A DNA stretch of 64,000 nucleotides from an uncultured Candidatus Berkelbacteria bacterium (GTDB taxonomy: Bacteria > Patescibacteriota > UBA1384 > CAILIB01). Positions within the stretch are counted from its first letter, which is position 1, and the number at the start of each line of letters is the position of its first letter. The notes below the pieces were generated by a model. That model was not told the DNA's origin and searched no databases. It worked only from the letters and a program-made list of their open reading frames with translations. Made by a program: the position numbers and the translations under genes. Below, in pieces: positions 1-49,322 of the stretch. The stretch spans positions 19 through 64,018 of the forward strand of contig CAILIB010000037.1 of the NCBI GenBank assembly GCA_903834195.1, in the 5' to 3' direction.

Positions 1-283
1 GACGTGCTCTGCACGTCTGCTCACCCTCCCATAAAGAATAAGAATACCTAGGAGTAAATCCTAGGTATTCTTATGTAATTTATATTCCCTCTCTTAACAC
101 TGAACTCACCTTCCATAAGGTTATAAATAACGTGCGAGTAAATCCACGTTATTTATTTAGTAGTACCGTTACTATAGAGGGAAGGTGTAAACACCCTCCC
201 TCTCAACGACGTGCTCTGCACGTCTGCTCACCCTCCCATAAAGAATAAAATACCCGGAAATAAATTCCGGGTATTTTATATTG
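1..283. repeat. Tandem array of three modular intergenic units (U1 1-76, U2 77-160, U3 161-283), cut by the window edge
   Basis: 41-nt perfect direct repeat at 1-41 and 208-248. Each unit ends in a perfect 12-13 bp hairpin (40-72, 123-156, 247-277). The loops are agtaaat, cgagtaaatc and aataaat, and the stem cores are unrelated. Confidence 0.8.
247..277 (-). terminator. Hairpin H3, probable bidirectional intrinsic terminator for CDS 298-1479
   Basis: 12-bp perfect stem aaaatacccgga/tccgggtatttt with a 7-nt loop. T-rich flanks on both strands. Lies about 20 nt past the stop codon. Confidence 0.7.
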
Positions 284-297
284 TTCTGAAAAGAGTA

Positions 298-1479
298 TTA
301 GGCGGAGAAAGCAGTATTGTTTGTGGCAACAGCTTCTACAGCGGTATCAGGTCCTACAACATCTGAAACCTTTACTTCAGGAGTTTCATCAGTAACTGCT
401 GTGCTGTCTGCAGCTAACATGAGTTCATCCAAATCGCCTTGGTTTGCTTCAGCGTCCTTAATCTTGATTGCTAGCTGTTCCAAGCGAACACGAACTTTTC
501 CGAGTGTTTCGTTTATCTTTTCATCTTTTGCATCATGGGATGCAATGCGAGCTTCAAGTGCTTTTTGAAGATCGGTGTCAGTTTTGCGAGCCACCTTAAT
601 TGCTTCTTGGTTTGCAAGGAGCTTTTGTTCGAGTTCTGTGTAGCGAGTTTGTTGACGTTTAAAGAGTTCAACAACTGATGTTGCTGTTACCTCAGGAGTT
701 TTTTCAACTTCGACAGGGGCCTCGACAACCTCTTCGGCAATAGGTTCAGGAGTAACTTCAGCTGTATCTTCAGCTGCTGTGACAACTTCTGAAGCTGGTT
801 CAACAAGTTCGGTTGTTAGTACAGGATTAACCACAGCTTCTTCTACAGGAGTTACAATTTGAACTGGTATTTCAGTAGCGTCTAGTGCTGCGCGTTTTTC
901 ACCTAATTCCAATGCTGAAGCATTGCCAGGAATCTCAGTATCGACAGTTCGAATGTCAGGATCAGTAAGTTGGAATGTTACCCCTTGAAGTTCATTGGCT
1001 GGTTCTGCGTCTGTTTCAACTAAACTAGGGGGTGTGCTTAGAATATCGGCAGTCTCTGTTACTGTGCTCGCAGGTGTAAGTGGTTCGATTGTATTCATTG
1101 GGCCGGTTACATCAACCATGCTCATTCCAGAAACTTTACTTGCAGGAACGGTGAGTGTGCCGTCAGGTTGGATCGGTGATTCAAGAGTTGCTGTGGCTGG
1201 AGTACCTTCAACTTGAACAATTACAGGTAATGTACCTGTTTTTGCAACGTTAGGTGTGCCACCAGTAAGTGGAACATCAGTTGCCCAAAAGCTACTCCCT
1301 GGCATTGTAGGTGCAGCTTCTTTTGCAGGCTGTTTCTCAACGGCAGAAGGGGACATGTCAACTAACTTGGCATCAGGACTAGGTGCTGCAGGCATAGCAG
1401 TAACAGCGGGCACATCTTCTTGTGCGACGATAGTTGGTTGTGGCTCTTTAGCGAAGCCTAAGGCGGATAGTATGCCCAT
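298..1479 (-). CDS. Hypothetical acidic Pro/Thr/Val/Glu-rich protein with a C-terminal coiled-coil segment
   Basis: 393-aa uninterrupted ORF. Low-complexity acidic body. Heptad-like stretch ELFKRQQTRYTELEQKLLANQEAIK...RLEQLAIKIKDAE. No recognisable family motif. Confidence 0.55.
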   Translation of the reverse strand: MGILSALGFAKEPQPTIVAQEDVPAVTAMPAAPSPDAKLVDMSPSAVEKQPAKEAAPTMPGSSFWATDVPLTGGTPNVAKTGTLPVIVQVEGTPATATLESPIQPDGTLTVPASKVSGMSMVDVTGPMNTIEPLTPASTVTETADILSTPPSLVETDAEPANELQGVTFQLTDPDIRTVDTEIPGNASALELGEKRAALDATEIPVQIVTPVEEAVVNPVLTTELVEPASEVVTAAEDTAEVTPEPIAEEVVEAPVEVEKTPEVTATSVVELFKRQQTRYTELEQKLLANQEAIKVARKTDTDLQKALEARIASHDAKDEKINETLGKVRVRLEQLAIKIKDAEANQGDLDELMLAADSTAVTDETPEVKVSDVVGPDTAVEAVATNNTAFSA

Positions 1480-6234: not shown

Positions 6235-8145
6235 ATGGTTGATTTGTTGAGCGCCTTAAACAAAGAACAGCAACTGGCAGTTCAGACGACGGACGGGCCT
6301 GTTTTAATTTTGGCTGGTGCAGGTTCGGGAAAAACTAAGGCCTTAACCCATCGGTTTGCCTATCTTCTTCGAGAAAAGCGGGTGAGCCCGTACCAGATTC
6401 TTTGTGTAACGTTTACCAATAAGGCTGCCAACGAAATGCGCGAGCGTATTGGGCGGTTATTGGGCGATGAACAGGGTGAGGTGACGCTGCCTTGGCTTGG
6501 AACCTTTCACTCGGTTTGTGTGCGCATTTTACGCCGCGAGTTGGAGCATACTTCGCTCGGGTATAGTTCTCGGTTTGCTATTTATGATGAGGGCGACATG
6601 CAGCAGGCAGTAAAGCGGGCTATGACAGAACTGAATATTGATGCCAAGCAGTTTAATCCACGAACAATTCATTCCCAGATTTCGAGTGCTAAAAATGAGT
6701 TGGTAGATCCAAAAGAGTACGGCCAATTTGCTCTAGGCTTGTTTCAGAAAACCGTTCATGCGGTGTACGAGCGGTACCAAAAGTTACTCCGAGATGCTAA
6801 TGCATTGGATTTCGACGACATTATGCTGGTGACACTCGATATGTTTAAGAAGCATCCCGAGATTCTGGCGAAGTACCAGGAGCTCTATCGGTATGTAATG
6901 GTGGATGAGTATCAAGATACGAACAAGGCGCAGTATTTGTTGATCAAACAGTTGGCGTCGGTGAATCGAAACTTATTTGTGATTGGGGACGACTGGCAGT
7001 CGGTGTACTCTTGGCGGGGTGCTGATTTTCGTAATATTTTGGATTTTCACAAGGACTATCCGGATGCCACGATTATTAAACTCGAACAAAATTATCGCTC
7101 CACGCAGACAATTTTGGACGCAGCTCAGGCGGTAATCACTAAAAACGAGCAGCGCAGTGACAAAAAACTCTGGACCAATGGTCCGGTGGGTTCACTCGTA
7201 AGTGTGGTTGAGTGTCTTAATGAGAAAGATGAAGGGGAGTTCATTATTCGCGAAATTAAAGGACTGCTTCGAAGTAGTCAGTTTACCGGTCTGCATTCGT
7301 ATAATGATTTTGTCATTTTATATAGGACCAACGCCCAATCGCGGTTACTGGAAGAAACGCTCCTGAAGTACAGTATTCCATATCGGATTGTGGGAGGGGT
7401 AAAGTTCTACGAACGCAAAGAGGTAAAGGATATTTTGGCCTATTTGCGCCTCATTTCTAACCCGAACGACTGGGTGAGTATGGAGCGAATTATTAATGTT
7501 CCGGCGCGGGGAATTGGGCCAAAGGCAGTATTGGAATTGCGAAGTATGCCTGGAGGTGATCAGCTCGATGTGGCACTTTTACCTGCTAAAGTGCAAACGT
7601 TCTTTATTATGATTGACCAGTTGCGTAAGTTGGCTGAGAATCGAAGTGTTTCTCAGTTGGTTGAAGAAGTTGCGGTTCGGACTGGATATCGTGATTTCCT
7701 GAAGGATGGCTCTATTGAAGGGGAAAGTCGTTGGGAGAACATTCAAGAATTAGTTGGTGCAGCTCAAAGTGCCGAAGATCTGCAGACGTTCTTGGAAAAT
7801 GTTGCGTTAGTTCAGGATGCTGAAGAATCAGTAGATCGTCAGATTGAATCAGGGGAAATTGACGGTGCGCTCACATTGATGACATTGCATGGTTCAAAAG
7901 GGCTCGAGTTTCCCGTGGTGTTCATGAGTGGAATGGAAGAGGGAATTTTCCCTCATAGTCGTGCCTTTACTGAGAAAAATGAAATGGAAGAAGAACGTCG
8001 TTTGGCCTATGTCGGAATGACACGGGCGAAGGAACGGCTGTACTTATTGTATGCGTTTGAGCGTCGGATTTACGGCTTGCTTCAGAGTAATCCTCCATCT
8101 CGGTTTATTTACGAGATTCCTGAGGAGTTGCGGGAAAAGATTTAG
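6235..8145 (+). CDS. pcrA: ATP-dependent DNA helicase, UvrD/PcrA family
   Basis: Walker A AGAGSGKT, DEYQDT (motif II), QNYRS, and the C-terminal TLHGSKGLEF...VGMTRAKERL motifs. Confidence 0.9.
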   Translation: MVDLLSALNKEQQLAVQTTDGPVLILAGAGSGKTKALTHRFAYLLREKRVSPYQILCVTFTNKAANEMRERIGRLLGDEQGEVTLPWLGTFHSVCVRILRRELEHTSLGYSSRFAIYDEGDMQQAVKRAMTELNIDAKQFNPRTIHSQISSAKNELVDPKEYGQFALGLFQKTVHAVYERYQKLLRDANALDFDDIMLVTLDMFKKHPEILAKYQELYRYVMVDEYQDTNKAQYLLIKQLASVNRNLFVIGDDWQSVYSWRGADFRNILDFHKDYPDATIIKLEQNYRSTQTILDAAQAVITKNEQRSDKKLWTNGPVGSLVSVVECLNEKDEGEFIIREIKGLLRSSQFTGLHSYNDFVILYRTNAQSRLLEETLLKYSIPYRIVGGVKFYERKEVKDILAYLRLISNPNDWVSMERIINVPARGIGPKAVLELRSMPGGDQLDVALLPAKVQTFFIMIDQLRKLAENRSVSQLVEEVAVRTGYRDFLKDGSIEGESRWENIQELVGAAQSAEDLQTFLENVALVQDAEESVDRQIESGEIDGALTLMTLHGSKGLEFPVVFMSGMEEGIFPHSRAFTEKNEMEEERRLAYVGMTRAKERLYLLYAFERRIYGLLQSNPPSRFIYEIPEELREKI

Positions 8146-11592: not shown

Positions 11593-11636
11593 TTTAGAGC
11601 TAGTAGTTTAGCTGATTTTCAGCTATAGTTCGGCGG

Positions 11637-12479
11637 ATGATAGACCGCCTCGATCCACAAGAACTGCGCAACCGTTTATATAACGATAAGTACTGGTCCA
11701 AGAAAGATTTGGGGCAGCACTTTTTGATTGATGGTCGTGTTCTCGAAGCAATGCTTGAAGCGGCAGAACTTAGCGAGTCAGATACAGTTGTTGAAGTGGG
11801 GCCAGGGATGGGTGTGCTCACTGAAAAACTCCTTGAACAAGCTGGTCATGTGGTGGCGTTTGAGTACGATTTTCAGATGGTGAAAATTTTGCAAGACGAT
11901 TTTAAGAATGAGAAACTCGAACTCGTTGCAGGGGATGTGTTGCAAACTGCAGTCGAAAAAATTCCGACCATTGGCGCATATAAAGTAGTTGCAAATATTC
12001 CCTATCAAATTACGACGCCGCTGATTAAACTTTTTCTTGAGGGAGGGGTGAGTGTCCTTCCTGAAAGACTCGTATTATTAGTTCAAAAAGAAGTGGGTGA
12101 GCGCCTTACTGCTGGTCCATCCGAAAGTGGTCGGGGCTTCTTATCGATGCTTACACAATACTATTCTGACGCTGAATATGTAGTAACGGTTCCGAGGGCA
12201 TCTTTCTGGCCGATACCAGGGGTAGATTCTGCCGTTATTTCTCTCCACATTAAGCAAGAGCGCCGGTATACAGGAGAAGATGAATCCAACTTCCTCCGCT
12301 ATGTTAAGCGGGCTTGGACGCAACCACGGAAGCAATTAAAGAACGTCCTCGCAGGCATGCGTGGCGTTGCACATACCGAGATCGGGGCCCAATTTATTGC
12401 GCTCGGTTTACCTGAAAATATTCGCGTGCAAGAACTAAATGAAGATCAATGGGATGTTCTCTATAGGGGTAACGTATGA
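11637..12479 (+). CDS. rsmA: 16S rRNA (adenine1518/1519-N6)-dimethyltransferase
   Basis: KKDLGQHFL start motif, SAM motif VVEVGPGMGVLT, and ANIPYQITTP. Confidence 0.9.
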   Translation: MIDRLDPQELRNRLYNDKYWSKKDLGQHFLIDGRVLEAMLEAAELSESDTVVEVGPGMGVLTEKLLEQAGHVVAFEYDFQMVKILQDDFKNEKLELVAGDVLQTAVEKIPTIGAYKVVANIPYQITTPLIKLFLEGGVSVLPERLVLLVQKEVGERLTAGPSESGRGFLSMLTQYYSDAEYVVTVPRASFWPIPGVDSAVISLHIKQERRYTGEDESNFLRYVKRAWTQPRKQLKNVLAGMRGVAHTEIGAQFIALGLPENIRVQELNEDQWDVLYRGNV

Positions 12480-19599: not shown

Positions 19600-19617
19600 G
19601 ATGTTTTCAGCTATAGT
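19589..19617 (+). promoter_or_regulatory. Promoter for tRNA-Leu (TTGAGA-17 nt-TATAGT)
   Basis: -35 at 19589-19594, inside the comEA 3' end. 17-nt spacer. -10 at 19612-19617, 15 nt before the tRNA 5' end. Confidence 0.55.
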
Positions 19618-19632
19618 CACTGAGTACCATCT

Positions 19633-19718
19633 GCCGGGATGGTGGAATGGTAGACACGCTAGCCTTAGGAGCTAGTGCCCGCAAGGGTGTGGAGGTTCGA
19701 GTCCTCTTCCCGGTACCA
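19633..19718 (+). tRNA. tRNA-Leu (anticodon UAG), CCA encoded
   Basis: Cloverleaf read by eye. Acceptor gccggga/tcccggt (G1-U72). Anticodon arm ctagc-CTTAGGA-gctag. Long variable arm. T arm ggagg-ttcgagt-cctct. Terminal ACCA. Confidence 0.9.
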
Positions 19719-23507: not shown

Positions 23508-23517
23508 AGAGCCAATT

Positions 23518-23546
23518 AAAAAATGCCCCGTTCGGGGCATTTTTTA
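23518..23546. terminator. Bidirectional intrinsic terminator between convergent genes
   Basis: aaaaaa-atgcccc-gttc-ggggcat-ttttt. Overlaps the stop codon of the minus-strand gene. Confidence 0.85.
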
Positions 23547-24659
23547 ATTCTTGGCGAATGCTTTTCTGAGCAATTGACCGAAGACTGGTACAAATACTAT
23601 GAAGAATAGAACGATAGTTACGATCATTCCAACGTACGGGACGATGCGAATGAGGTAGCCAAGTAGCGCACCGGCAAGGAGTTGTGCCCAGAGGTTGTCT
23701 TTGAACTGGGGAAGGATTTGAGCAAGGACGTATCGACCAATGATGAAAAGTCCCAAAACTCCAGCGAGAATCAGAAGGAAAACAAACAGGGCAGCAAATG
23801 CAAAGCCGATTTTTATGCCAATTCCACTGAGGAGGAGAATAAATAAGAGTAATGGCGTGACAGCGAGTGTTACCAGTCCCCAAGCAAGGTTAACTCCGTA
23901 GCCTTGGGTGAATTCGGCGGTAATTGCTTGAACACGAGAAGGAAAGCGGACAACGAGCAGGGCTCCAAAAATGAAGCTTGCAACAAGACTAAAAAGCACA
24001 GATATGAGTAAGTCCATGTTCTGGTTTGGCAGAGGTTCACGAGACGTAATCCCGGTAACCTTAACTGTGCTTAACCCGTCAGCATCAACATCTGATTTAT
24101 AGTTGAGCGCTCCAGCAATACTTCCACCAGTAAACTTGAGTGCTTGAACAGTTCCGGTTACATCGCCGCCAATGACTGCTGAACTTGTCACATTGGAGGC
24201 AGACATATGGACGGTACCGTTTATGGTTCCGGCCAATGTGACATTTGTACCTGAAATCCAAAGGTCTCCTTTTACTACTGAGGCTTTGTCGAAAGTGATA
24301 TCGTTTCCTACGACGTAAATATCGTTGCCGTACTCACCGTTGAAGATGATTGTGCCACCGGCTGCGAATACATTGTAGGCTGTTCCTTTTTCAATAGTGA
24401 TATTGGATCCAGCAAGGTAGGCGCTTCGCCCAGGGGTTTCATTCAGGTTAATCGTGTTTCCAACAGCAAAAAGCTCGCCAGTAAGTGGTGCCTTTAAATT
24501 AAAATCTTGGCCAGCGGTAAACAAGTCACGATGGAGCGCATCAGTGATGGTGGTTGAAGTGTCAGAACGGAACTCAGCAGCATGAGTTGGGAGAGGGTGA
24601 GTGCCTAATATAAGTACCACGAGTGGTACAAGATAAAGCAGGCGACGCATTTTATTCAT
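23544..24659 (-). CDS. Membrane protein with an extracytoplasmic beta-helix repeat domain (bactofilin/DUF4097-like) and a C-terminal multi-TM region
   Basis: Signal peptide ...THPLPTHAAEF. About 170 aa of short repeats (GNTINL, GSNITI, GGTIIF, GNDITF, GTNVTL, GTINGTV). These are followed by 4-5 hydrophobic helices. Confidence 0.5.
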   Translation of the reverse strand: MNKMRRLLYLVPLVVLILGTHPLPTHAAEFRSDTSTTITDALHRDLFTAGQDFNLKAPLTGELFAVGNTINLNETPGRSAYLAGSNITIEKGTAYNVFAAGGTIIFNGEYGNDIYVVGNDITFDKASVVKGDLWISGTNVTLAGTINGTVHMSASNVTSSAVIGGDVTGTVQALKFTGGSIAGALNYKSDVDADGLSTVKVTGITSREPLPNQNMDLLISVLFSLVASFIFGALLVVRFPSRVQAITAEFTQGYGVNLAWGLVTLAVTPLLLFILLLSGIGIKIGFAFAALFVFLLILAGVLGLFIIGRYVLAQILPQFKDNLWAQLLAGALLGYLIRIVPYVGMIVTIVLFFIVFVPVFGQLLRKAFAKN

Positions 24660-47159: not shown

Positions 47160-48395
47160 ATGGATATGGAAACTGAAATTACCCCTGAACACACAGTACG
47201 TACAGCGTCTAAAAAACGCGGAGGACGATTTAACTTTATCTTCCTTACGGCTGGGGTTGTTGTAATTAGTTTGTTGATTGGCCTCGTTGGTGGTGTTACT
47301 GGTTTTGTAGCACTTTCAAGTGACTCTGCGTTTGGTCGCAATGTCCGCCGCATTTTTAATATTAATGCAAATAATCCTCTTCCAATTTCAACAACGAGCC
47401 GAGTAACACTTGAAGAGAGTTCAAAGGTTATTGATGCTGCCAAGAAAGTGAAACCAGCCGTGGTTTCTATTTCAGCAAGTCAGCAGGTTGAAGATTACTT
47501 CGGTCACGTCAGTTCACAAGAAGTTTCAGGTGGAACTGGATTTATCATTAGTTCTGACGGATTAATCATTACAAATAAGCACGTTGTAAGTACGGTTGGT
47601 ACCTATAAGGTTGTGCTTGATGACGGTCGTATTTTTGACGCAAAAATTCAGGCAACTGATCCATTAAATGACATTGCACTTGTAAAAATTGATGCAAAAG
47701 ATTTACCAACAGTTGAACTTGGTTCTTCAGGTGATCTTCAAGTGGGTCAATATGTGCTGGCGATTGGTAATGCGCTTGGTCAGTATAGTAACTCAGTAAG
47801 CCTTGGAATTGTGTCAGGTAAGGGTCGTAGTATTAGTGCGAGCGATGCTGGTTCAAGTAGTGAGTCGCTTAGTGGTGTAATTCAGACCGATGCTGCTATC
47901 AACCCAGGTAATTCAGGTGGCCCGCTCGTAAATATGTCAGGTCAGGTAGTGGGAATTAACACTGCCATTGCTACCAATGGTTCAGGTTCTGGTTCAATTG
48001 GGATTGGGTTCTCAATTCCAATCGACAGCGTGATTTCAGTGATTAACTCAGCTCGTAAAACTGGTCAAATTGTTCGTCCATATATTGGCGTGCGTTATGT
48101 GCCGGTTGATACGTCATTCCAGCAGCAGAATAACTTGACCGTAGATTACGGCGCATACGTAAGTCCAGGTTCAACTGCAGCACAGCCAGCAGTTGTGCCA
48201 GGAAGTCCGGCCGACAAAGCAGGTATTCTGCAAGGTGACATTCTGCTTGAACTAAACGGAGAGCGAATTAATACAGATACTCCACTCACGACACTTCTAC
48301 AGAAGTATAATCCAGGTGACACGGTAACCTTCAAGGTACTACGTAAAGGTGCCAACCAAGATATAAAGGTAACGCTTGATAAGCTCAACCCTTAA
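47160..48395 (+). CDS. htrA: HtrA/DegP-family serine protease with a PDZ domain
   Basis: Catalytic triad context TNKHVV (His), DIALVKI (Asp), GNSGGPLVN (Ser). C-terminal PDZ segment. Confidence 0.9.
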   Translation: MDMETEITPEHTVRTASKKRGGRFNFIFLTAGVVVISLLIGLVGGVTGFVALSSDSAFGRNVRRIFNINANNPLPISTTSRVTLEESSKVIDAAKKVKPAVVSISASQQVEDYFGHVSSQEVSGGTGFIISSDGLIITNKHVVSTVGTYKVVLDDGRIFDAKIQATDPLNDIALVKIDAKDLPTVELGSSGDLQVGQYVLAIGNALGQYSNSVSLGIVSGKGRSISASDAGSSSESLSGVIQTDAAINPGNSGGPLVNMSGQVVGINTAIATNGSGSGSIGIGFSIPIDSVISVINSARKTGQIVRPYIGVRYVPVDTSFQQQNNLTVDYGAYVSPGSTAAQPAVVPGSPADKAGILQGDILLELNGERINTDTPLTTLLQKYNPGDTVTFKVLRKGANQDIKVTLDKLNP

Positions 48396-48396
48396 A

Positions 48397-48428
48397 CGAA
48401 AAACCGCTCCGGAAGGAGCGGTTTTTCG
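48397..48428. terminator. Bidirectional intrinsic terminator between htrA and prmC
   Basis: cgaaaaa-ccgctcc-ggaa-ggagcgg-tttttcg, a perfect palindromic terminator. Confidence 0.9.
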
Positions 48429-49322
48429 TTAGACGATGCTGATTACTCGATCGAGTCCGGCGTAGTCTTTGTGGACGGTAACAGTCTTTTTTGGGAACAC
48501 CTCGCTAATAATAGGCAGTATGAGCGGGGTTTGAGTTTCACCGTATTCAATAATGATTGCGCCATCTTTTTCGAGGTGAGTGGGGGATTCTGCGAAAAAT
48601 TTTCGGTATAGGTCGAGGCCATCGCTGCCACCAAACAGGGCGATGTCTGGCTCGTAGAATACAACATCTTGCTGGGCGGCTGGGTTCATCTTCCAGGTGT
48701 CCTCAACATAGGGGAGGTTAGCAAGGATGATGTCGAATGGTCGTTTTGTGAGCTCTGGTGCATCGAACATATCGGCTTGTACCAATTTTAATACTACATT
48801 TCCGAGGGTGACTCCACGAGAAAGGGTCTCCCAGTTCTCCTTGGCAAGTTCTAATGCTTCGTTTGAAATCTCGCTGGCGACAATCGTGGCCGGGATCGCT
48901 CGCTCTGCAAGCTCTAGAGCCACACTAATAGCGATAGATCCACAGCCGGTGCCGAGTTCAGCAACTTGTACTGGGCAGGGGAGATTGCTTTCGTGGGCAT
49001 GCGTTTTGAAGTGATCGCTAATCCATTCAACTGCCTGTGTTACGATCCCCTCTGTTTCTGGGCGAGGAATAAGTGCACGGTGGTCAATTTTAAATTCTCG
49101 ACCATAGAACTCTTTGTTGCCAGTAATATGAGCAACGGGCTCGTTCTGCTCACGACGGGTCAGGAAGGACTCGTATTGGGTTTCTTCTGCGCTTGTGAGG
49201 GTTTGCTCGGGGTAGGTGTGCAAGTGGGCACGGCTGCATTTGAGTACTGCAGCAAGTAAAACCTCAGCATCGCGGAATGAGACTGTGCGGTTGGAAACGT
49301 CGAGTGCTTGGGTGATGGTCAT
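48429..49322 (-). CDS. prmC: Release-factor glutamine N5-methyltransferase
   Basis: SAM motif VAELGTGCG and the catalytic NxPY motif (ILANLPYV). Start reset to MTITQALD at 49322. Confidence 0.9.
   Translation of the reverse strand: MTITQALDVSNRTVSFRDAEVLLAAVLKCSRAHLHTYPEQTLTSAEETQYESFLTRREQNEPVAHITGNKEFYGREFKIDHRALIPRPETEGIVTQAVEWISDHFKTHAHESNLPCPVQVAELGTGCGSIAISVALELAERAIPATIVASEISNEALELAKENWETLSRGVTLGNVVLKLVQADMFDAPELTKRPFDIILANLPYVEDTWKMNPAAQQDVVFYEPDIALFGGSDGLDLYRKFFAESPTHLEKDGAIIIEYGETQTPLILPIISEVFPKKTVTVHKDYAGLDRVISIV

Follow-up and report, generated by a model that had tools for sequence, protein, structure and literature searches.

A candidate dispersed three-hairpin module with a conserved C-rich tract, arrayed in tandem in a Berkelbacteria genome and found at gene 3′ ends in its relatives

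Repetitive extragenic palindromic sequences (REPs) of bacteria are imperfect palindromes of 20-40 bp that carry a conserved GTAG or CGTC tetranucleotide at one end (PMC3733652). A genome contains more than 100 of them, with alternating orientation inside bacterial interspersed mosaic elements (BIMEs); they are tied to REP-associated tyrosine transposases (RAYTs) and have been credited with transcription termination and with stabilization of mRNA 3′ ends (PMC2817692; PMC3733652; PMC3116915). A different kind of multicopy element is represented by the small RNAs (sRNAs) LhrC1-5 of Listeria, which are tandem units of ~100 nt that form hairpins, expose a CU-rich motif complementary to the Shine-Dalgarno (SD) sequence and end in a terminator of their own (PMC4132741). 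Here, we describe a locus with features of both, which occupies positions 1-283 of a 64-kb stretch of DNA (hereafter, the window) from an uncultured Candidatus Berkelbacteria bacterium. As judged from its sequence and its relatives, a dispersed non-coding module of ~105-115 nt is repeated here head to tail in at least three copies, designated U1, U2, and U3.

Read 5′ to 3′ on the plus strand, the module opens with P1, a hairpin of 11-13 bp whose 5′ arm is nearly all purine and whose 3′ arm is nearly all pyrimidine. A linker, CAACG, leads to P2, a 7-bp hairpin of free sequence, and P2 is followed by the single-stranded tract CUGCUC-ACCCUCC(C), a short A-rich spacer, and P3, a hairpin of 12-16 bp whose stem is A/U at the base and G/C toward the top, whose loop is (A)GUAAA(U), and which ends in a U-rich tail. 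The only complete copy in the window is U3 (176-279), which comprises a 13-bp P1 (176-203; the 5′ arm, AGAGGGAAGGTGT, is rich in purines and the 3′ arm, ACACCCTCCCTCT, in pyrimidines, with a single A-C mismatch), a CAAC linker with P2 (204-224, the hairpin itself at 208-224), the C-rich tract CTGCTCACCCTCCC (224-237), which is unpaired in the minimum-energy fold, and a perfect 15-bp P3 (245-279) with the loop (A)ATAAA(T). U1 (1-74) is cut by the window edge and begins with P2 (1-17), its P1 being expected to the left of the window start; it continues with the same tract CTGCTCACCCTCCC (17-30), predicted to be single-stranded and similar to the 3′ tail of 16S rRNA, and with a perfect 16-bp P3 (38-74) that has the loop (A)GTAAA(T) and T-rich, terminator-like tails on both strands. 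U2 (87-156) is degenerate through internal deletions: it retains only the 3′ arm of P1 (87-98; CCCTCTCTTAAC, compare CCTTCTCTCAAC in the related locus L009), the 5′ half (CTGAAC) of a P2 of the L009 type joined to the C-rich tract CTCACCTTCC (100-114), and a perfect 12-bp P3 (123-156) whose loop contains AGTAAAT. The junction between U1 and U2 (75-86) is occupied by a remnant, GTAATTTATATT, that resembles the 3′ end of P3 plus ATATT (compare 271-282). The spacer between U2 and U3 (157-175) reads TTAGTAGTACCGTTACTAT, in which TTAGTAGT is similar to TATTAGTAGTT from the groEL stop region of L009, a likeness that would link the spacer to groEL.

The original prediction had recognized three perfect hairpins with nearly the same loop, each preceded by a pyrimidine tract. 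All of these are present, and each hairpin is slightly longer than was first given (38-53/59-74, 16 bp; 123-134/145-156, 12 bp; 245-259/265-279, 15 bp). The loops read AGTAAAT (53-59), CGAGTAAATC (135-144), and AATAAAT (259-265), and the tracts read CTCACCCTCC (20-29 and 227-236) and CTCACCTTCC (105-114). The 41-nt direct repeat that had been noted (1-41 = 208-248) contains no mismatch and carries the mini-hairpin GACGTGC-TCT-GCACGTC, which corresponds to P2, at 1-17 and 208-224. The absence of a P1 hairpin from U1 bears out the view that the array is cut at position 1. The unit proposed at that time, a tract plus a hairpin, was rightly seen as tandem and modular; however, it represents only the 3′ half of a module of ~110 nt, because P1 and P2 are also present. 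When U1 and U3 are compared, the 41 nt before P3 are identical while five pairs within P3 differ, each of them compensated; the stems thus change far more rapidly than the loop and the flanking sequence. The fold energy of region 1-297 is −114 kcal/mol, compared with −53.6 ± 4.2 kcal/mol for shuffled sequences (z = −14.3). Tandem Repeats Finder called no array in the window, the units being too few and too diverged.

The same module is carried by relatives that were found through EF-P. In L009 (EF-P 84% identical), a single homologous unit starts 3-5 nt past the groEL stop codon and runs in the order P1, CAACG, P2, CUGCUCUCAUCCUCC, P3. Its P1 arms are GAGAGAAGGAAC and GTTCCTTCTCTC, as against AGAGGGAAGGTGT and ACACCCTCCCTCT in the window, its P2 is CTGAAC-TTC-GTTCAG as against ACGTGC-TCT-GCACGT in the window, and its P3 is AAAATACCGGCA-AGTAAAT-TGCCGGTATTTT. 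In L023 (EF-P 80% identical), a full unit lies on the efp strand, 8 nt past the efp stop codon, and is composed of AAGGGAGGGAC-AAGT-GTCCCTCCCTT, CGACG, GCCGAC-AAGT-GTCGGC, CUGAUCCCUCCCC, and AAAATGGCCGGA-AGTAAAT-TCCGGCCATTTT. The three window units, L009, and L023 all have a P3 with an (A)GUAAA(U) loop 5-12 nt past the C-rich tract, and this arrangement defines the subtype of the module found in the candidate phyla radiation (CPR). The module is absent from seven related loci (L001, L013, L014, L033, L036, L039, and L041), and its copy number is low, with one cluster in the 64-kb window, one copy in 20 kb of L009, and one in 7 kb of L023. A lack of further copies and of conservation in relatives would have spoken against the original prediction; both copies and conservation were found.

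Pairing between the arms of all three hairpins is maintained throughout these sequence changes. Helix cells were counted on short anchored alignments, because a MAFFT alignment of whole units misplaces L023. In P2 (seven instance types), two-sided changes occur in five of the seven pairs and one-sided changes in none, and 93.8% of the cells are paired, compared with 65% in shuffled sequences and 25-45% in slid controls. P3 (four types) shows two-sided changes in nine of its 15 pairs, again with no one-sided change, and 98.3% of its cells are paired. In P1, 55 of 56 cells are Watson-Crick, at least two pair types occur at nine of the 11 shared positions, and the purine is always on the 5′ arm. 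The minimum-energy folds of the three CPR units leave the C-rich tract unpaired and have z-scores of −7.6 to −10.2.

The tops of the P3 stems have turned over completely among the window, L009, and L023, while the loop AGUAAAU has stayed constant. This retention of the loop in three genomes and behind two host genes, despite the turnover of the stem tops, supports sequence-specific recognition, and it suggests that something reads the P3 loop, of which the simplest model is a GUAAA pentaloop closed by an A-U pair. The earlier proposal of selection on a structure with a sequence-specific loop is supported on the same grounds. A search of both strands of the 473 kb comprising the window and the fetched loci for RTAAAT loops on stems of at least 7 bp returned only hairpins of this element (the window has three, L009/L010 one, and L023 one), and each of them is preceded by a C-rich tract. 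The remaining 11 perfect hairpins of the 64-kb window have no related loop, as had been claimed.

Outside the CPR relatives, the core of the module was found with the pattern CTCTCAACG N13-17 CTGCTC N0-2 AYCCTCC, which was taken from segments conserved between the window and L009 and leaves P2 and all downstream sequence unspecified. Matches were obtained in the metagenome contigs L024, L025, L026, L028, L029, and L030; three more, inside coding DNA, look like chance. The outside core has the form UUGAGAGGGAACC-loop-GGUUCCCUCUCAACG-P2-CUGCUCACCCUCC, and the family as a whole has P1, AACG, P2, and CUGCUCACCCUCC in common. The outside P2 varies, being UUCGC/GCGAA in one contig and CCCGCC/GGCGGG in another, and is partly paired in L026 and L030. 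A covariance model (R1) built from five non-window sequences matches window positions 172-244 at 40.1 bits (E = 1.9e-7) and, as a 5′-truncated match, positions 1-37 at 22.6 bits (E = 0.003), and it detected the L023 unit independently (29.1 bits). The covariance-model scan that had been proposed for this locus thus yields further copies, and a model made without window sequences detects the window unit. The ThiC protein of L029 places this contig in Omnitrophota, and the core is thus present in two phyla or more. A stretch of 114 nt that begins exactly at P1 is common to L026 and L030, where it is set in unrelated flanks, and L028 and L029 have 175 nt in common; the L025 copy ends inside P1 and is truncated like window U2. 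No Rfam 15 family was found in the window or the outside loci in gathering or E-value mode, only tRNAs passing the threshold, and the best sub-threshold matches in region 1-400 reach at most 28 bits against thresholds of 47-100. The Omnitrophota unit had no BLAST match among plasmids and phages. Pattern scans of viral contigs returned nothing but positions 233-266 of the IMG/VR contig L042, a phage terminator (GGAGAGGGAACC-TTTTC-GGTTCCCTCTCC) that has the P1 stem of the Omnitrophota-type motif but lacks the rest, and this is regarded as a chance resemblance.

The surroundings of the outside copies deserve a separate description. In the contigs of the Omnitrophota type, the element follows tRNA-Gly or tRNA-Leu in L024 (699-1060), L029 (2575-2883), and L028 (600-882), where it is bracketed by partial or degenerate copies of tRNA 3′ ends that resemble the att scars of integrative elements; the bracket of L028 includes an inverted T-arm fragment, and L024 has one extra partial unit compared with L029. 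In L026, the region between tRNA-Val and rplU (1866-2215) contains ~2.7 tandem copies of a 90-nt repeat downstream of the core and a second, partial C-rich tract, GGGCTCCCTGCTCACCCTC, broken by an insertion of ~60 nt. A reading of the tRNA-linked forms as tmRNA or permuted tRNA-like genes was discarded, as ARAGORN finds normal tRNAs only. Small open reading frames (ORFs) starting from an AUG in the P1 loop of L028 and L029 were likewise rejected, because the AUG is missing from L026, L030, L009, L023, and the window.

Compared with the described systems, the module resembles REPs and BIMEs in being a short, hairpin-forming extragenic repeat that lies at gene 3′ ends, often forms mosaic tandem arrays, and is patchy between relatives. 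It differs from them in its length of ~110 nt, in its three distinct hairpins and conserved single-stranded tract, in the same orientation of all copies, and in its low copy number. No GTAG or CGTC tag is common to the units of the window, L009, and L023, and no RAYT is seen among the neighboring ORFs (efp, rpsR, ssb, rpsF, and one for a Xer-like integrase). With LhrC1-5, the module shares the unit length, the tandem arrangement, the hairpins, the exposed CU-rich motif complementary to SD sequences, and a terminator of its own. However, LhrC genes are expressed from regulated promoters of their own and act on defined mRNA targets, whereas the units described here start a few nucleotides past a stop codon with no evident promoter; in addition, the two are similar neither in sequence nor by Rfam, and SD sequences are largely lacking from the host genome. 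RsaE/RoxS and the csRNAs of Streptococcus are further multicopy sRNAs with C-rich seeds. The modules of 3′ untranslated regions (3′ UTRs) and terminators, and the sRNAs derived from 3′ UTRs, are generally understood to lie directly past the stop codon in the same sense and to end in a GC-topped hairpin with a U tail, with stacked hairpins acting as exonuclease barriers, and the present module is similar in all these respects. By contrast, ordinary terminators, as they are generally known, conserve no loop across genes and genomes and have no upstream core that spans phyla. The module is therefore like a cross of a REP/BIME cluster, an intrinsic terminator, and a C-rich-seed sRNA, that is, a structured repeat of intergenic 3′ ends. 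It is not a REP in size, tag, copy number, or alternation of orientation, it differs from the sRNAs in having no targets at ribosome binding sites (RBSs) within the window, and it belongs to no Rfam family.

The position of the module indicates the strand on which it is probably transcribed. It starts 3-8 nt past an upstream gene of the same sense, namely groEL in L009, efp in L023, a 769-aa coding sequence in L030, and tRNA-Val in L026, and L024, L028, and L029 likewise have a same-sense tRNA upstream. Because of this position and orientation, the C-rich strand, which is the plus strand in the window, is taken as the strand read out of the upstream gene; fold energy cannot decide. In the window, the minus strand carries rpsF, ssb, rpsR, efp, and gene X (298-1479), and in the relatives L001, L009, L013, L014, L033, L036, and L039 this block is followed by a convergent groEL-groES pair, sometimes with one gene between. 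Since the convergence of X on groEL holds in at least seven relatives, the array would lie between gene X and a plus-strand gene located just left of position 1 that is almost certainly groEL. The terminator scan passes 38-74 and 245-279 on both strands, with U-rich tails both ways, and the P3 of U3 (245-279) lies 18 nt past the stop codon of gene X, which reads toward it; these hairpins look like working intrinsic terminators.

The reading that we favor, tentatively, is that of a dispersed 3′-end module that is transcribed as the tail of its upstream gene and combines a terminator with a displayed C-rich tract. The module would be transcribed as a trailer, here almost certainly of groEL, and each P3 would act as an intrinsic terminator, so that three P3 hairpins in series, working in both directions, would insulate the convergent genes groEL and X from each other. 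P1, P2, and P3 together may give the transcript a nuclease-resistant 3′ end, and the invariant C-rich tract and the P3 loop may serve as exposed recognition sites for a putative partner, either a protein or a G-rich RNA. The tandem copies may have arisen by local duplication and deletion. The module may have moved between sites (after groEL, after efp), and its different sites and the core shared with Omnitrophota suggest the behavior of a low-copy dispersed element.

Several points weigh against this interpretation. Strand, transcript ends, and termination are all deduced from sequence, both strands fold equally well, and the sample consists of three CPR genomes and about four distinct outside instances. 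The Omnitrophota forms have no P3-type terminator, and termination therefore cannot be the function of the shared core. Moreover, there is not a single G-U pair in ~160 helix cells of P1, P2, and P3, which is odd for selection purely at the RNA level, and a DNA palindrome or template-switch repair fits at least as well; the sole imperfect pair of the window, A183-C196, would be G-U on the minus strand. Template switching in replication is a documented route by which perfect hairpins are made or repaired with several simultaneous compensating changes (PMC8794818), and it could account for flawless stems as well as for the absence of wobble pairs.

It is possible, if rather unlikely, that the module is instead a selfish repeat at the DNA level, a small non-autonomous mobile element whose hairpins, when folded in single-stranded DNA, are recognized by a recombinase or transposase from another locus; the terminator effect would then be a by-product and the array a hotspot of insertion or duplication. 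Such an element would account for helices that are Watson-Crick with no G-U pair, for swaps in P2 and P3 that are two-sided and include transversions without a wobble intermediate, and for truncated copies that stop inside P1 (window U2 and L025). The patchy occurrence among close relatives, the change of host site between groEL and efp, the 114-nt or 175-nt element that recurs in unrelated flanks, the core shared across phyla, and, outside the CPR, copies that abut tRNA 3′ ends and are flanked by partial tRNA 3′-end duplicates like att scars all point in the same direction. However, the copy number is low, the 64 kb of the window, the 20 kb of L009, and the 7 kb of L023 having a single locus each; there are no terminal inverted repeats, and no transposase was seen near any copy, the only recombinase nearby being a syntenic Xer-like integrase that is also present in element-free relatives. 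The constant orientation relative to the upstream gene in the readable cases argues for a role at the transcript level or else for very specific targeting, and hairpin recognition alone leaves the conserved single-stranded tract and loop unexplained. Far less probable is a stack of three generic bidirectional terminators whose loops are alike only through recent duplication. All three hairpins do fit the terminator pattern on both strands, the 41-nt perfect repeat is itself a recent duplication, and similar hairpins lie between convergent genes elsewhere in the window (23514-23549 and 48395-48430; 16-bp perfect hairpins with an A-tract, a GC stem, and a T-tract, and with the loops GTTC and GGAA), which are ordinary bidirectional terminators. 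Yet L009 and L023, in which the module follows different genes, retain the loop, P1, P2, and the C-rich tract despite a complete turnover of the stems, the loop occurs nowhere else in 473 kb, and the core exists without any terminator in other phyla, so that this explanation is largely refuted. The original assertion that the hairpins are not ordinary terminators holds as far as the modular build and the loop kept across genomes and genes are concerned; since terminator features are nevertheless present, “terminators plus something more” is the better description.

Two further explanations turn on the C-rich tract, which reads GCUCACCCUCCC in the window, UGAUCCCUCCCC in L023, CUCUCAUCCUCC in L009, and GCUCACCCUCCUUUA in the outside forms. 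The 3′ tail of 16S rRNA is GAUCACCUCCUUA, and the resemblance of the tract to the anti-SD sequence that had been pointed out is real at the level of sequence; a role in blocking RBSs is poorly supported, because the window is poor in SD sequences and no RBS matches the tract. Most genes of the window have no SD sequence and show a −10-like box (TATACT, TAGAAT, TACAAT, or TATAGT) 5-10 nt before the ATG (examples of SD-less starts are 28801, 35782, 36486, 40736, and 59297), which suggests that leaderless mRNAs are widespread in this genome, and RBSs of the GGAGGAGG type are found only at some operon-internal starts (16917 and 22056). No match of at least 9 nt to the tract is located at an RBS in the window, the best complementary sites being inside coding regions. 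A general anti-SD role of the tract is thus unlikely, because the genome barely uses SD sequences and no RBS of the window matches the tract. Tandem trans-acting sRNAs, released from a 3′ UTR or made from their own promoters and pairing through the tract with SD-like mRNA sites as in the multicopy sRNAs of Firmicutes, are a doubtful explanation. The 5′ hairpins, the unpaired C-rich tract, and the terminator do make up the architecture of an Hfq-independent sRNA, no other unpaired sequence is as well conserved across phyla as the tract, the units occur as several tandem copies, and a few operon-internal genes do carry an RBS of the above type. On the other hand, the units of L009, L023, and L030 start 3-8 nt past a stop codon and leave no room for a promoter, the promoter scan found nothing upstream of the units, and the sole −10-like box before U3 (TACTAT, 170-175) would start a transcript within P1; a tract that matches a generic SD would, in addition, provide little target specificity. 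It is extremely improbable that the minus strand is the relevant one, with GGGAGGGTGAG as the RBS of tiny ORFs (for example, a GTG at 222-220 that would open a peptide of ~22 aa), each followed by a terminator. A GGGAGG box does lie 10 nt before this GTG, the ORF ends just before hairpin 2, and the single P1 mismatch would be G-U on that strand; however, start codon, frame, and length are conserved neither in L009 nor in L023, the differences between genomes compensate stems and are not synonymous, the supposed start codon is inside the P2 stem, and the genome hardly uses SD sequences.

It is also tempting to speculate, at a low level of probability, that the C-rich tract is the third strand of an intramolecular pyrimidine-motif triplex (C+-G-C and U-A-U), folded back after the P2 hairpin into the major groove of P1 and parallel to its purine arm. 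The tract is nearly a mirror image of the P1 3′ arm. When it is laid parallel to the P1 purine arm, C-G and U-A matches number 7/9, 9/11, 8/10, and 8/10 in the four sequence types, three of which have the same register, and the assignment of arms to tracts is the single best of 24 permutations in the parallel orientation, compared with 6 of 24 in the antiparallel one. Furthermore, the strand order, namely purine arm, loop, pyrimidine arm, spacer, and pyrimidine tract, is the order that an intramolecular triplex needs, and none of the covarying changes in P1 alters its purine polarity. Such a triplex would close off the mRNA 3′ end with a compact cap that resists nucleases, and it would be the bacterial counterpart of the triple helices that expression and nuclear retention elements (ENEs) form in eukaryotic and viral RNAs; we know of no ENE-type triple helix in bacteria. 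As in the ENEs of MALAT1 and PAN RNA, the element would lie at a transcript 3′ end, and its purine-pyrimidine helix has a pyrimidine tract downstream on that strand, in the right polarity to run parallel to the purine arm. In ENEs, by contrast, a U-rich internal loop grips an A-rich tail by means of U-A-U triples, whereas the triples of the module would be mostly C+-G-C, which are weak at neutral pH, and the comparison here is one of sequence matches. The number of sequence types is very small, and several protonated cytosines in a row are unfavorable at neutral pH. The same mirror repeat could instead form H-DNA.

Other known elements were considered and set aside. The overlap with the boxA/boxB (Nus) signals is restricted to UGCUC and a GNRA-like pentaloop, and this reading was not adopted. 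Group II intron domains V/VI, IS200/IS605 ends, CIRCE, the ribozymes of the hepatitis delta virus-like, hammerhead, and twister types, ROSE and fourU thermometers, and the Rho rut site show no match in defining sequence or context.

Turning to the neighborhood of the array, gene X (298-1479, minus strand) encodes a low-complexity protein of 393 aa without a Pfam match and converges on the array. An EF-P that is 100% identical and the best GroEL candidate (P0121, 89% identical to the GroEL of L009) are located on separate contigs of 68,080 nt and 42,823 nt, which suggests that the assembly breaks inside the repeat array; the cut at position 1 may thus be a contig end and not only the edge of the window. 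In L023, a second sequence similar to the C-rich tract, CCTCACCCTCG (6679-6707), lies just past the module in the spacer of the gene X promoter (TTGACC-17-TATAAT) and may be the remnant of a second unit. In L033 (EF-P 77% identical), the 460-nt spacer between X and groEL (11894-12352) is GC-rich and strongly self-complementary, has no Rfam match, and opens with the promoter-like box TTGACT behind an ordinary groEL terminator; it may be another uncharacterized non-coding RNA. Elsewhere in the window, the box TTTTCAGCTATAGT is common to 11610-11636, before the gene at 11637, and 19600-19632, before tRNA-Leu at 19633, and it is probably a shared promoter type.

Patescibacteria/CPR and Omnitrophota are small-genome, uncultured groups with almost no described biology of non-coding RNAs or repeats. 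The module described here is a compact, model-searchable element with very strong pairing covariation that appears to move between sites and phyla. Its invariant C-rich tract is similar to the 3′ tail of 16S rRNA and is found in a genome mostly without SD sequences. If it is a functional RNA, it would represent a new structured 3′-end element, which could act as a terminator or stabilizer, as a docking site for a protein, or as a triple-helix cap. Should it be selfish DNA, it would represent a new type of low-copy element that is aimed at gene 3′ ends and moved by a putative mobilizing enzyme. Either reading would explain the break in the assembly, as the array appears at a contig end.

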